DNA from: an uncultured Thermoleophilia bacterium
GTDB taxonomy: Bacteria; Actinomycetota; Thermoleophilia; UBA2241
DNA length: 64,000 nt
Assembly: GCA_963702475.1 (NCBI GenBank)
Contig: CAVPCT010000005.1
Span: forward strand, 544,001 to 608,000
Direction of reading: 5' to 3'
Each line of letters opens with the position of its first letter. Within the stretch, counting starts at the first letter, position 1. This document shows positions 25,877 through 30,288 of this stretch, piece by piece. The translations under genes and the position numbers were made by a program. The notes under the pieces are model-generated. The model was not told where the DNA came from, ran no database searches, and saw nothing but the letters and a program-made list of their open reading frames with translations.

Positions 25877-26242
25877 TCATTTGAGCTCGGTCGCCACGTA
25901 GCGGCTCACGGCCTGGATCTGCTCCGCCGTGAGCTGATCGCCGTAGCCCGGCATGCCCGAGGCGCCGTCTGTGACGACGCGGGCGATCTCCGCGGCGTCG
26001 TCCTCGCCGGCGATGACGACCGAGCCGCGTCCGTCGGAGCCGTGACAGCCGGAGCAGAACTGGACGTACAGGCTGTCGGGGTCGGTGGCCGGCGACAGGT
26101 CGGCCCCGGAGGACTCGGCGGGCGTGGCGGCCGAGGACTCCACCGGCGCGGTCGACGGTCCCTGGTCGGTGGAGCCGCCGCAGGCGGCGACGGTCGCCAC
26201 CATGGCGAGGGACAGGACCAGGACGAGGGCTGAACGACGCAT
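25877..26242 (-). CDS. Monoheme cytochrome c lipoprotein
   Basis: Lipobox VAAC, CSGCH heme motif, distal Met (SGMPGY), LTAEQIQAV helix. Confidence 0.88.
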   Translation of the reverse strand: MRRSALVLVLSLAMVATVAACGGSTDQGPSTAPVESSAATPAESSGADLSPATDPDSLYVQFCSGCHGSDGRGSVVIAGEDDAAEIARVVTDGASGMPGYGDQLTAEQIQAVSRYVATELK

Positions 26243-26402
26243 GCGGGCTCCATTCGCGAGACGTGGACGTTGTTCCGGTACCCCAGATACCGTCCAGCGT
26301 ATCGCACAGCCGCCCGCACGCGGGCGACGCAGGTGTGCCGCTCCCCATAGAATGCGCCCTGCGCATCACTCACCAAGCTCACCGAGAGGAGAGGGACGGT
26401 CG

Positions 26403-27053
26403 ATGACTACCGTTGATGAACTGGTCGGCGCGGTGCAGGCGGGCGACGCATCCCAGGCCGCCGACCTCGCCGCAAAGGCGCTGCAGGACGGCGCCGACGC
26501 AACCGCCATGGTCGGATCGCTGTCGGCCGCCATGCGCGCCGTGGGCGACCGCTTCGGCACGGGCGAGATCTTCCTGCCGGAGCTCATGCTGTCGGCGCGC
26601 GCGATGCAGAAGGCCATGGAGGTGATCCAGCCGGCCCTGCTGGACTCAGCCGGCGCGGCCGCGAAGCAGGGCGTCGTCGTGCTCGGCACCGTGCGCGGCG
26701 ACGTGCACGAGATCGGCAAGGACATCGCCATCACCATGCTGCGGGCCTCGGGATTCGAGGTCGTGGACCTCGGCCGCGACGTCGATCCGCTCGACTTCAT
26801 CAAGCGCGCCGAAGAGGTGAAGGCCGACATCATCGGCGCGTCCGCGCTGATGACCACCACCATGCCCGCGCAGAGGGAGCTGGTCGACATCCTCGTGGCC
26901 AAAGGCCTGCGCGAGAAGTACCACGTGATCCTCGGCGGCGCCCCCGTCACGGCCGAGTGGGTGGCCGAGACGGGCGCCGACAGCTGGGGCGAGGACGCCG
27001 GCAAAGCCGTCAAGGTCCTCGAGCAGTACATGGCCGCCAAGAAGGGGGCGTGA
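26403..27053 (+). CDS. Methyltransferase cognate corrinoid protein (MtmC/MtbC-like)
   Basis: VGDRFGTGEIFLPEL cap domain, GDVHEIGK (DxHxxG), SALMTTTM, GGAPVT. Confidence 0.93.
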   Translation: MTTVDELVGAVQAGDASQAADLAAKALQDGADATAMVGSLSAAMRAVGDRFGTGEIFLPELMLSARAMQKAMEVIQPALLDSAGAAAKQGVVVLGTVRGDVHEIGKDIAITMLRASGFEVVDLGRDVDPLDFIKRAEEVKADIIGASALMTTTMPAQRELVDILVAKGLREKYHVILGGAPVTAEWVAETGADSWGEDAGKAVKVLEQYMAAKKGA

Positions 27054-27054
27054 C

Positions 27055-28434
27055 GTGTCGCACCTGAAGCTGTGGGAGATCATGGAGCGGGCCGCCGAAG
27101 GTCCGTACTGCGAGGACGACGAGTTCCTCTACGACCTCTTTCTGCCGAAGATGCAGGAGGTGCTGCGCAAGTACGAGATCAAGTTCGACCCCGCGCAGCC
27201 GGTGCCGGCCGACGATGACCTGGCCGACCGGATCTGGAAGGCCGCGGTGGAGCTCTTCCTGCACGTGGGCGTGCATAACGTCGACACGCACCGTCGCATC
27301 CTCATCACCGAGGACGAGCTGAACGAGGCACTCTATCTGGCGCCGAAGGTGCACCAGGTCGGCGCCGGTCACGAGACGCGCTGGTGGATGCCGCGCAAAG
27401 TGGAGGACGAGCGCGGCCCGTTCGTCATCTTCAGCCCCGACATCACCTACGACGAGGAGATCTTCCTGCAGGCCTCCCTTGCCTACGTGCAGGAGCCCCT
27501 CGCCGACGGCGTCTGCGGGCCGATCCTGGAGGAGTCCATCGGCCGCACCATCCACTCCGGCACTCCCACCGAGATGGCCGGCGTGATGGAGCACGCCATG
27601 CAGCTCCGCAACGCGGCCAGGCTGGTCGGCCGCCCGGGCCTCTTCCTCGTGGCCGTGGGCACGGCGCAGTCGGACGTCGGCCAGATCGCCGTGAGCAACA
27701 ACGAGTGGGGCGTGCGCAGCACCGACGGCCGCCTCATCGGGGTGCTCACCGAGATGAAGACCGACAACGAGCTGCTCAACAAGGTCACGCACTGCAAGCA
27801 GTTCGGCTGCGCCATCGGCTGCCTCACCGGCGCCATCTACGGCGGCTACGCCGGCGGCGCCGAAGGCACGGCGGTGCTGGAGGTGGCTCACCACCTGGTC
27901 GGCCTCACCGTGTACCAGCACAACTTCAACAACAGCTTCCCGTTCCATATGCAGTACACGTCCAACAGCGGACGGGAGATGCTCTGGCTGGTCAGCTTGG
28001 TGCACCAGGCGCTGGCCCGTAACAGCCGTATCCTCAGCACCAGCAACGGCTTCTTCAACGCCGGGCCGGGTACGGAGATGCTGTTCCGCGAGGCCTCGGC
28101 GCACGCCATCGCCAGCGTCGTGAGCGGCGGCGACCTGTGGACTTCGGCGCCGCGCCACAACAAGTACCGCAACTACGCCACGCCGCTCGAGGCGCGCCTG
28201 GCGGCCGAGTGCGGTCACGCCGTCGCCAACCAGGGCATGACCCGGGCGCAGGCCTGCGAGGTAGTCGACACGCTGCTCAAGAAGTACGAGGCGGAGATCC
28301 CCACGGCCCCCGAGGGCAAGCCCATCCAGGAGTGCTACGACCTCATGAAGGTCAAGCCGCAGGGCTGGTACCTGGACATGTACAAGGCCGCACGCGAGGA
28401 GCTCGCCGGGCTCGGCGTGCAGTTCCCGTACTGA
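27055..28434 (+). CDS. mtmB: Monomethylamine:corrinoid methyltransferase (MtmB) family protein without pyrrolysine
   Basis: 459 aa; VPADDDLADRIWKA, NVDTHRRI, SGTPTEM, GRPG, YGGYAGGAEG, GPGTEM, TPLEAR, APEGKPIQECYD; open frame with no amber codon. Confidence 0.88.
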   Translation: MSHLKLWEIMERAAEGPYCEDDEFLYDLFLPKMQEVLRKYEIKFDPAQPVPADDDLADRIWKAAVELFLHVGVHNVDTHRRILITEDELNEALYLAPKVHQVGAGHETRWWMPRKVEDERGPFVIFSPDITYDEEIFLQASLAYVQEPLADGVCGPILEESIGRTIHSGTPTEMAGVMEHAMQLRNAARLVGRPGLFLVAVGTAQSDVGQIAVSNNEWGVRSTDGRLIGVLTEMKTDNELLNKVTHCKQFGCAIGCLTGAIYGGYAGGAEGTAVLEVAHHLVGLTVYQHNFNNSFPFHMQYTSNSGREMLWLVSLVHQALARNSRILSTSNGFFNAGPGTEMLFREASAHAIASVVSGGDLWTSAPRHNKYRNYATPLEARLAAECGHAVANQGMTRAQACEVVDTLLKKYEAEIPTAPEGKPIQECYDLMKVKPQGWYLDMYKAAREELAGLGVQFPY

Positions 28435-28468
28435 GACCCCGTCGCGGCGCGAGCCGCGGCCGCGGGAC

Positions 28469-28511
28469 GAGACGCAGACGGGGCGCCCAGCGGGCGCCCC
28501 GTCTGCGTCTC
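28469..28511. terminator. Perfect 20-bp hairpin between convergent units (probable bidirectional terminator)
   Basis: GAGACGCAGACGGGGCGCCC-AGC-GGGCGCCCCGTCTGCGTCTC. Confidence 0.75.
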
Positions 28512-28569
28512 CGGCCGGCCGCGGCCGGCCCCCTGCGATGTCACGCGCCGACACGCGGCGCGGGCTGCG

Positions 28570-28816
28570 TCAGCTCTGCTCCTCCTGCTCGGCCAGCTGC
28601 TGGTACAGCTTGTCGAGGCCGAGGGCGAGAGCCTTGCGGCGCAGCGTCACCGCTCAGCGGCACACCTGCCCGTCGCTGTGCACCGGAAAGGTGGCCTCGC
28701 GCTCGGCCGGGCTCATGGCCGCGACGCGCGCCGAGAATGCCGCCCCATCCGTGGGCAGCTGCTCGGTACGCGGCCGCCGCTGCGGCCCGCCGCGCCTCTC
28801 GTCCTTCGTCCTGCAT
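28570..28816 (-). CDS. Candidate small selenoprotein (in-frame TGA at 28654-28656, C-R-U); possible frameshift near 28768
   Basis: ...MSPAEREATFPVHSDGQVCR[TGA]AVTLRRKALALGLDKLYQQLAEQEEQS*; 26 of 27 post-TGA codons end in G/C; AGGAG SD before ATG 28816. Confidence 0.5.
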
Positions 28817-28836
28817 ACGCTCTTTCTCCTGATCCG

Positions 28837-29265
28837 TCACGGAAGGGGTTCCCGGTCCCACTCCGAGGGCGTGAACGCGCACCCCGGCTCGCCTCCTACG
28901 GCGAGCAGCGCGGTACCCGGCTCGAGCGCAATGGCGCCCCTCTGGCTCTTCGGGTCGGGCACGTAGACGAACGTGCCGGCCTTGGCGTCGAACTCCTCGC
29001 CGTCCACCTTGAAGCGGGCGCTGCCCGTCACGACCAGGTACAGCTCCTCGTGGTGCGTGCCCGACTCCGGGTCCTCGGTGTGGTCCTCGGTGAGGATGTC
29101 GCCGGCCTTGGGCGCCCGGAACAGGTTGGTGCCGAAGGAGCCGATGCCGAAGAACCGGCGGATGGGTCTCCACTCCGTCTCCGGCGCCCACTCGTACGGG
29201 ATCGTGGGGATGTCGTCCATGGGCGCGGCCACGTAGCGGGCCGCGCCCTCCGCGCTCTCGCTCAT
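28837..29265 (-). CDS. Cupin domain protein
   Basis: HTE...HEELYLVVTGSARFKVDGEEFDAKAGTFVYV cupin motifs; GGAGG SD. Confidence 0.85.
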   Translation of the reverse strand: MSESAEGAARYVAAPMDDIPTIPYEWAPETEWRPIRRFFGIGSFGTNLFRAPKAGDILTEDHTEDPESGTHHEELYLVVTGSARFKVDGEEFDAKAGTFVYVPDPKSQRGAIALEPGTALLAVGGEPGCAFTPSEWDREPLP

Positions 29266-29391
29266 GCCTGTTCCTCCCTGACGTCGCCTGGGGTGCAGCT
29301 TACCCGCGCGAGGGAGGAGTCACCCCCTCGCGCGGCCGGGCTGGGCCGGGGGCGCCGGTGCCGGCCGGAGAGGCTCCGCATCCGGCCCGCG

Positions 29392-30129
29392 TCAGACCTC
29401 GGCCGGCGCGCAGCCGCAACCGCAGGCCTCACACACGACAGGGTTCGGCGGCGTCTCCGGCGCCGGCTCGGAGCCGCCCATCTCCCAGAAGATGTCCTCG
29501 CCGAGCGTCTCGCCCGGCTCCACGACGATGAACTCGTCGTCGTGCGGGCCGCGGATGAGCTTCTCGAGCAGGCGCAGCGAGCCGTCGAGCTGGACGACCG
29601 GCAGGTCGTAGAACTTCGACACCGTGTCCACGTAGTCGTGAGCCTTCTCGAGGTCGTACGTGCCGGTGTCGATCACGGCGATGCGCGTGTACGACTCCAT
29701 GATCATAAGAGCGACCATGCGCGCCTTCTCCTCGCCCATGCGGGGGACGACCTTGAGGTACTCGCGGTACGGGTCCTCCAGCTCCTCGATCCAGCCGCGA
29801 GTGTAATAGTACGTGCCCGGGTGCTCGTTGAACTCGCGCATGTAGGCGCGGCGCGAGCCGAGCAGCAGCGAGATGCAGTCGTCGCAGGCCGGCAGGACCA
29901 GGCGGTGCGTGCCGGCCTTCAGGTCCGCGGCGCCGTTGGAGCAGCGCCCGTAGGCCAGCAGGATCGTGCAGTCGCCGGGCGTGGTGTCGATGCGCTCCTG
30001 GATCTTCTCGCGCAGCACGTCCGGGGTGTCGTGCAGGAAGCCTTCGAGGTAGTCCACCGGGATGTCTCCGCGCAGCGCCTCCACCTCGTCGCGGATGGTG
30101 CTGCAGGCGATGATCTTGTAGTCCGTCAT
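29392..30129 (-). CDS. DUF1638 domain protein
   Basis: IIACSTI, FLHDTP, LLAYGRCSNG, DDCISLLLGS, GTYYYTRGW, YTRIAVIDTG. Confidence 0.85.
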   Translation of the reverse strand: MTDYKIIACSTIRDEVEALRGDIPVDYLEGFLHDTPDVLREKIQERIDTTPGDCTILLAYGRCSNGAADLKAGTHRLVLPACDDCISLLLGSRRAYMREFNEHPGTYYYTRGWIEELEDPYREYLKVVPRMGEEKARMVALMIMESYTRIAVIDTGTYDLEKAHDYVDTVSKFYDLPVVQLDGSLRLLEKLIRGPHDDEFIVVEPGETLGEDIFWEMGGSEPAPETPPNPVVCEACGCGCAPAEV

Positions 30130-30288
30130 GGTCGCCGTTGCCTTTCGGTCGAGCGCAGGGGTCCGTCGGCCAAGTGTAGGGCATGGGCGCGGGAATGTCA
30201 GGCCGATTCCGTCCTGATTGTGGTCAAGCCGTCGGCTGTGCCGGCGCGGGCGCGGCGTGAGCCTGCGGCCGCGCCGCCCCCCGTACAC

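Follow-up and report, generated by a model that had tools for sequence, protein, structure and literature searches.

Can a TGA codon within a short open reading frame (ORF) on the minus strand of this DNA be read as selenocysteine (Sec), and if so, which RNA signal would direct its recoding? The ORF was found in a stretch of 64,000 nucleotides, the whole of which is referred to as the window. Its frame reads ...MSPAEREATFPVHSDGQVCR-TGA(28656-28654)-AVTLRRKALALGLDKLYQQLAEQEEQS-TGA(28572-28570). According to textbooks and current reviews, bacterial SECIS elements have to be located directly behind the UGA and inside the coding sequence, a rule which is also built into search programs such as bSECISearch. 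A preliminary description of the locus had proposed a novel selenoprotein of 48-81 aa encoded next to a corrinoid methyltransferase, with an in-frame UGA in a C-R-U motif followed by TGA, and had chosen a GCC-GCAA-GGC hairpin as the SECIS-like element. The minus-strand sequence bears out the motif and its in-frame UGA as well as the position of the ORF 3' of a cupin gene (cupin stop at 28839-28837), and the selenoprotein itself is supported by the comparative, entirely computational evidence given below; the choice of the hairpin did not hold. The features of the locus are compiled in Table 1.

Table 1. Coordinates of genes, signals and RNA structures at the locus (positions of the window)
Feature	Position	Strand	Evidence or remark
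Predicted small selenoprotein gene	28570..28816	-	ATG 28816 to stop TGA 28572-28570
Shine-Dalgarno site AGGAG	28826..28830	-	9 nt upstream of ATG 28816
Extra base, CC versus single C in relatives	28765..28766	-	Puts ATG 28816 out of frame
Predicted selenocysteine codon TGA, C-R-U motif	28654..28656	-	Homolog column and contigs of four runs
Predicted helix, 5' strand CUGCGCCG, +12..+19 after U of Sec UGA	28637..28644	-	RNAalifold, pair counts, MFE
Predicted helix, 3' strand UGACGCAG, includes stop UGA	28565..28572	-	RNAalifold, pair counts, MFE
SECIS-like hairpin CGCGCCG-CGUGU-CGGCGCG, 3' UTR	28544..28562	-	Present in 16/16 close Sec forms
Perfect 20-bp hairpin, 3-nt loop, between convergent genes	28469..28511	-	Terminator-like, without U tract
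Upstream cupin gene, 142 aa	28837..29265	-	Pfam Cupin_2, E 4.5e-6
DUF1638 gene, listed ORF	29392..30288	-	Pfam PF07796, E 5.9e-42
Convergent MtmB-family methyltransferase gene	27055..28434	+	Pfam MtmB, 308.5 bits; without in-frame TAG
Corrinoid (B12-binding) protein gene, listed ORF	26085..27053	+	Pfam B12-binding and B12-binding_2

Reading frame, homologs and the in-frame TGA

In the window as assembled, ATG 28816 is shifted by one base relative to the frame of the remaining ORF. The AGGAG Shine-Dalgarno site previously placed before this ATG, one frameshift away from the ORF, was verified, and the frameshift is explained by a single extra C. A word-indexed search of 5.8 billion proteins yielded nine short proteins (52-62 aa), all of which end at ...VCR. 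One of them, P0003, agrees with the window protein except at ...AAAAAAY-EQLPTDG, reads ...AAAAAAYEQLPTDG and supplies the in-frame N-terminus; since it does not have the extra base and is identical elsewhere, the window has a surplus C at 28765/28766. Over 28300-29300, contigs from four public runs were compared with the window, and that of run X2, which is about 97% alike, has one base fewer at 28765. The extra C probably reflects a mistake of the assembly, the alternative being a frameshift peculiar to the strain. Its removal results in a product of 81 aa, MQDEGREARRAAAAAAY-EQLPTDG...HSDGQVCR-U-AVTLRRKALALGLDKLYQQLAEQEEQS, i.e., the full length lies at the upper end of the size range originally proposed. 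AGGAG, GGGAG or AAGGAG occupies the same place in homologs, and all eight complete homologs checked combine a Shine-Dalgarno site, an ATG and the in-frame TGA.

A six-frame search of 60 relatives revealed the gene in eight genomes of the same genus, with a TGA within each match; upon translation, these homologs display the TGA at one and the same column, and both flanks are conserved. A profile search across 89 genomes of the family detected the gene in 14, of which 12 contain TGA and two (G090 and G110, representing other genera) contain TGT (Cys). Further loci were retrieved by degenerate-pattern scans of genome and metagenome collections, which contributed two and eight additional distinct close Sec forms, respectively. 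After removal of duplicates and of five chance matches (L070, L079, L081, L088 and L095, dropped before counting, which do not possess the A-V-x-[W/L]-R continuation), and with a degenerate copy in G080 (L068) kept outside the count, 29 distinct homologous genes were available. The Sec column is occupied by TGA in 20 and by TGT or TGC (Cys) in nine of them, and the motif H-S-D-G-x-V-C-x-[U/C]-A-V-x-W-R is kept on either side. A HMMER search of 1.84 billion proteins (representatives) returned 24 matches, comprising 18 full-length C-R-C forms, five Sec forms truncated at the Sec column, and a single questionable repeat protein. Pairing of Sec with Cys forms together with conservation on both flanks is an accepted selenoprotein signature. 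TGA 28656-28654 was found without difference in the metagenome contigs of all four runs.

The window's genome (4.3 Mb, 70% GC, nine contigs) harbours selA, selB, selD and tRNA-Sec. The tRNA scored 68.3 bits (Rfam; ARAGORN anticodon tca), while SelA, SelB and SelD scored 427.9, 309.6 and 350.6 bits, respectively, the latter with one TGA. Indeed, selD (C3:145461-146408, plus strand) codes for a selenoprotein itself (SGU-AAKLGPCD). The genomes of the Cys forms G090 and G110 likewise have selA. G022 contains a TGA form with a local hairpin (L030), but searches for selD (E up to 1e-30) and selA (E up to 1e-20) came back empty at 90% completeness. This is one point against the selenoprotein reading; in the window's genome selD, selA and selB are neighbours, so that a single gap in the assembly of G022 could conceal all of them. 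A GC3-based scan of the window's genome for other in-frame TGAs produced 38 candidates, mostly gene junctions, missed selD and fdhA, and yielded no wider SECIS consensus. The degenerate copy L068 (G080:C12:33694-33795) has kept the TGA and the C-terminal part; the H-S-D-G motif is absent, and a change in the 3' arm of the hairpin described below breaks its pairing. It probably represents a decaying gene.

The checks proposed in the preliminary description thus all came out in favour of its small selenoprotein, with respect to homologs (TGA or Cys at this column, conservation on both sides), Sec machinery and contigs; only its choice of SECIS did not hold, as detailed in the next section. Judged from sequence comparison, TGA 28656-28654 is very probably a Sec codon and the gene that of a selenoprotein.

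The 81-aa protein appears to represent an unnamed family, which the supplements of PMC13188914 and of the selenoproteome surveys cited there might list under another label. Its conserved core, H-S-D-G-x-V-C-x-[Sec/Cys]-A-V-x-W-R-x-x-x-L-x-R-G-L, comprises about 24 residues, with G, V, C, [U/C], A, R and G invariant and H, D, V and R nearly so. Sec follows the invariant Cys at a distance of two residues and occupies the N-terminal end of a predicted helix: AlphaFold2 (26 sequences, mean pLDDT 71.6) predicted a disordered N-terminus followed by four helices, with Sec54 opening helix 53-65. NCBIfam 20.0 returned no family for any of nine members at E up to 1. No Pfam cut-off was reached by the window protein or by 18 Cys forms; DUF1488, the candidate noted for the window protein, was rejected (E 0.095, under the family cut-off). 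PDB sequence search, Foldseek against PDB and ESM Atlas provided nothing usable for the small protein. The spacing of Cys-x-Sec and the position of Sec at a helix start resemble the C-x-U/C-x-C redox motifs (thioredoxin-like Sec.1, ferredoxin-thioredoxin reductase) in the table of PMC13188914; however, no similarity to them in sequence or fold was found for the small protein (Pfam, NCBIfam, PDB and Foldseek negative). The records of the family are named "hypothetical protein" or not at all in their sources, and those naming an organism are MAGs labelled Thermoleophilia or Actinomycetota. Within 401 genomes drawn from the class, 10 of the 79 further members of the window's family yielded the gene, compared with 0 of 321 genomes from outside this family. 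Among the genomes searched, the protein family is limited to one family of Thermoleophilia-like Actinomycetota.

Structures behind the two UGA codons

Reviews place the bacterial SECIS directly behind the UGA (PMC13188914, PMC8659212). The bSECIS model, as given in the legend to Fig. 2 of PMC13188914, comprises a loop of 3-9 nt, an upper stem of 4-16 bp, a spacing of 16-37 nt and an MFE of -7.5 kcal/mol or lower. In the 66 nt behind the UGA at the present locus, structures differ from homolog to homolog, and their consensus is weak (-5.7 kcal/mol). [quoted passage not shown] A local hairpin passed it in none of the 16 close Sec forms, defined by a C-terminal tail of 26-28 aa, in all four distant Sec forms and in three of the nine Cys forms; with three Cys forms passing, the test is not very specific, and because it takes no bulges, an irregular local SECIS could be missed. 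The distant Sec forms possess a strong local hairpin at +14, GCGCGAG-CUGACC-CUCGCGC, and their region +9..+47 folds at -16 to -23 kcal/mol. Two Cys forms (L083:476-664 and L091:865-1053), which are kin of the Sec form L097, keep a 6-bp hairpin at the local SECIS position, which may be left over from a recent change from Sec to Cys or may be a by-product of the R-E..L-A codons.

The GCC-GCAA-GGC hairpin of the preliminary description does exist in the window. It was rejected as SECIS, as its stem measures 3 bp, is broken in the nearest homologs (L023-L025) and lies outside the RNAalifold consensus, i.e., it is not conserved. A gathering scan of the window with Rfam gave no matches. At lower stringency (E-value scan of 28480-28720), hya RNA (RF02992) appeared at 28603-28677 on the minus strand, spanning the Sec codon, with 23.9 bits and E 0.035 versus a gathering threshold of 56.8; 10 homologous loci gave no hya match at E up to 1, and the hit was treated as chance.

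Behind the stop codon, the alignment shows the stretch TGACGC-N5-CGCGCCG-CGTGN-CGGCGCG to be better conserved than the protein, with a mean pairwise difference per site of 0.10 for the 29-nt 3' element versus 0.23-0.35 for the coding regions. It includes an almost invariant 19-nt hairpin situated 7 nt past the stop codon, with a loop that begins 14 nt past the stop UGA and, in the window, 98 nt past the Sec UGA (95-101 nt among close Sec forms). Every one of the 16 close Sec forms has this hairpin, compared with none of the four distant ones (V-C-G-U) and none of the nine Cys forms; since all hairpin-bearing genes belong to one clade, this distribution does not fully separate "Sec-specific" from "clade-specific". 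All stem cells are paired (100%), with one compensatory change from C-G to U-A (L084) and a U-G wobble in L027, and in the loop CGUG is fixed and the fifth base free (A, C, G or U). Stem and loop agree with the bSECIS model (7 bp and 5 nt in 15/15 sequences, within an upper stem of 4-16 bp and a loop of 3-9 nt), as do the order of loop bases (CGUGN in 16/16, i.e., G within the first two bases, then usually G/U) and the folding energy (-10.0 to -12.7 kcal/mol, compared to -7.5 kcal/mol or lower). The spacing does not, as the loop lies 95-101 nt away from the Sec codon and 14 nt away from the stop UGA.

The selD SECIS, GGGUC-CGUGC-GACCU, does not vary among the five genomes of the genus examined, and thus the hairpin shares its CGUG loop with a bona fide SECIS of this lineage. 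The fdhA SECIS of the genome, GGUGGCC-GGUCU-GGCCGCC, starts at +14. The hairpin sequence has a single exact match in the genome; a genome-wide repeat was discarded, as only this locus is exact and matches with 1-3 mismatches look like GC-rich noise. The 20-bp hairpin previously reported after the ORF was recovered as a perfect one. Between it and the SECIS-like hairpin resides a GC-only palindrome, GGCCGGCC-GC-GGCCGGCC (28513-28530, minus strand). A metatranscriptome contig (X18) spans 28533-28741, meaning a contig in an RNA library, which is not proof of transcription. The start of a DNA contig of X1 (28535) is about 2 nt off, and the end shared with X18 is therefore probably an assembly break; the contigs of X1 and X18 end at 28533-28535, about 3-5 nt from the palindrome.

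For the close Sec forms, RNAalifold predicted an 8-bp helix between +12..+19 and the stop-codon region, using 15 of the 16 sequences (alignment A2; L094, cut at its 3' end and near-identical to L085, was left out). The sequence TGACGC is invariant in all 16. In a fixed-structure count, 91.7% of the cells of the long-range helix were paired, and sliding of the partner strand reduced pairing to 19-60%. Two adjacent helix pairs are changed on both sides, exclusively in two sequences with Leu CUG for Trp UGG, where CGCC is replaced by CGCAG; as these two sequences are related, both changes count as one evolutionary event. The remaining pairs are invariant or vary on one side only, and the first strand is doubly constrained, as it also contains the Trp-Arg-Arg codons. 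Only the part between +12 and the 3' end of the hairpin was folded, as the remainder is covered by a ribosome at the UGA. Under this restriction, the MFE structure contained helix plus hairpin in 15/15 sequences, with core pair probabilities of 0.86-1.0. As a control, the fraction of +12..+19 paired to the stop region was calculated, amounting to 0.67-0.96 in close Sec forms, to 0, 0.62 (L065), 0 and 0 in distant Sec forms, and to 0 in seven Cys forms, 0.01 in another and 0.57 in L091. TGACGCC also follows the stop in three distant forms (L083, L091 and L097), two of which are Cys forms. The control is thus good but not clean.

Proposed Sec insertion from a distance and its alternatives

Sequence invariance, thermodynamic predictions and a single compensatory event for each helix point, with a somewhat better than even chance, to a SECIS acting from a remote position. 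Sec insertion via such a remote or discontinuous SECIS is the best available explanation of the locus at the same guarded level of confidence. With the Sec UGA in the A site, the predicted helix would start at +12, where canonical SECIS stems start. By pairing +12..+19 with the stop region (UGACGC..), these 8 bp would close off the last ~68 nt of the coding sequence and bring the 7-bp CGUGN hairpin to the normal start of a bacterial SECIS. With the hairpin 2 nt past the helix's 3' strand, the distance to be covered between UGA and loop would amount to 9 + 2 + 7 = 18 nt, equal to that of fdhA (11 + 7) and close to that of selD (16). The 3' hairpin would then be bound by SelB. Once the ribosome reached the stop UGA, the helix would already be unwound and the loop would be 14 nt away; this spacing is below the bSECIS range and would thus favour termination, which would win at this codon. 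No bacterial SelB is known that works via a junction of this type.

It is conceivable, if rather unlikely, that the gene codes for a genuine selenoprotein with an irregular or weak SECIS directly behind the UGA, and that the 3' hairpin serves mRNA stability, termination/attenuation or regulator binding. Each sequence has local folds (-5 to -16 kcal/mol), the local test took no bulges, the hairpin resides in an intergenic region where terminators are expected, and reviews (PMC13188914) place bacterial SECIS elements immediately downstream of the UGA and include some that are off-consensus. However, no local structure is common to the close Sec forms, and in local folding energy they have no advantage over the Cys forms. 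Moreover, a separate, larger terminator-like hairpin follows further 3' in L022-L025, and a plain terminator or stabiliser needs no invariant CGUG loop, no fixed 7-nt spacing from the stop and no invariant TGACGC pairing with +12..+19.

The two other readings considered are improbable to differing degrees. Taking the hairpin for an ordinary SECIS of the second UGA (28572-28570), which would then be read as Sec to give a C-terminally extended protein, is improbable: the hairpin begins 7 nt and its loop 14 nt past this codon, and the stop context UGA-C is invariant, yet the frame past the hairpin is unconserved, runs for 52 to >195 codons through terminator hairpins and is antisense to the neighbour gene. 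Furthermore, a spacing of 14 nt falls short of the range of 16-37 nt given for bSECIS elements (PMC13188914, legend to Fig. 2), and the first, clearly coding UGA would be left without any SECIS. That this first TGA is a true stop, or the gene a pseudogene, so that the downstream similarity would reflect RNA or DNA structure and not translation, is more improbable still. Nine homologs have a Cys codon there and form one uninterrupted ORF, and variation by codon position is highest at third positions downstream of the TGA (0.35 vs 0.23-0.27). The frameshift near the start of the window copy, which would fit a pseudogene, is absent from P0003 and the run X2 contig; a degenerate copy in G080 and gene callers ending the protein at the TGA also speak for such a reading.

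Returning to the remote SECIS, a partial literature search surfaced no natural bacterial distant SECIS docked by pairing. The 3' hairpin resembles the canonical bacterial SECIS of the E. coli fdhF type in being GC-rich, with a 7-bp stem and a 5-nt loop with G-U at loop positions 2-3. It differs in position, as the canonical loop is 16-37 nt from the Sec UGA, whereas here it is 95-101 nt away in the 3' UTR and joined to the codon by the predicted helix only. In E. coli, a bacterial SECIS moved behind the stop reportedly worked when pairing brought it near the UGA (Su, Li and Gladyshev, Nucleic Acids Res 2005). The same logic would apply here, with the difference that theirs was an artificial construct, whereas the present case would be natural and conserved. 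Archaeal and eukaryotic 3'-UTR SECIS elements share with it a position outside the coding region and downstream of the stop. In contrast to them, the machinery is bacterial (SelA, and SelB with C-terminal extension), the hairpin has no GAA_A or kink-turn features, and proximity would apparently be achieved by RNA pairing, with no extra factors. The UXX-star, KCU-star and CU-COOH families, as presented in PMC13188914, also have their SECIS behind the stop, yet directly behind the Sec codon, whereas 26-28 codons plus the stop separate Sec codon and hairpin here; the NCBIfam models of these families gave no match to the small protein.

Gene neighbourhood and implications

Upstream of the small gene, the order DUF1638 - cupin - small gene is observed, and the cupin of the window is 78-92% identical to those of six homologous loci. 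Downstream, the window and its nearest relatives have a convergent MtmB-family gene, and others a corrinoid protein gene or different genes. Among the Cys forms, L063 is also located 3' of a cupin gene, L083 and L091 directly follow DUF1638, and L092 lies upstream of a DUF1638-like gene; the H-G-D-G subgroup has a different gene context. Two of the listed ORFs are probably too long at their 5' ends: the true start of DUF1638 is probably the internal Met of MTDYKIIACS, and that of the corrinoid protein is probably later as well, since its B12-binding domains are at aa 111-309. The DUF1638 protein of the window has a Cys-rich C-terminal tail, CEACGCGC (29392-29460, minus strand); tails in these operons are CEACGCGC, CAGCGDCGC and CAVCGCGC, and other DUF1638 proteins end in DPELEAC(S/P)G. 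The Cys-rich tail may be a partner site for the C-x-U protein.

Besides Sec, pyrrolysine is in evidence in the genome and at one related locus. One MtmB gene of the genome has an in-frame TAG (658.6 bits), and tRNA-Pyl is found at C3:641046-641118. Four MtmB-family paralogs contain no stop at all (221-308 bits), one of which adjoins the small gene. The MtmB genes map to C9:301399-302748, C4:65316-66659, C9:248475-249818 and C2:42577-43938, in addition to 27055-28434 (+) of the window. In G018, an mtbB-type pyrrolysine insertion sequence (Rfam PYLIS_2, 87.7 bits) at L028:239-338 (+) is located about 1.2 kb from the small selenoprotein gene, placing Sec and Pyl recoding in one gene cluster.

DUF1638 is genetically tied to RamA-dependent cobalamin reactivation (PMC5764234, PMC12478193). 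From this link we infer that the small protein may act in corrinoid (re)activation, assisting the co-transcribed DUF1638 and cupin in corrinoid methyltransferase clusters through thiol/selenol redox chemistry or metal binding. Chances appear about even that the locus represents the first natural bacterial "discontinuous" SECIS, i.e., a SelB hairpin in the 3' UTR that is docked at the mRNA entrance of the ribosome via the gene's own stop codon, with unwinding shielding the stop, in a new C-x-U family tied to DUF1638-linked corrinoid reactivation. If the remote SECIS is true, the distance rule for bacterial SECIS elements would be spatial and not linear, which would explain why such genes escape SECIS-based searches, and the locus would provide a natural template for selenoprotein expression without constraining the sequence behind Sec. 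The small protein would add an unnamed Sec/Cys family to the selenoproteome and, for DUF1638, a new partner that can be tested.
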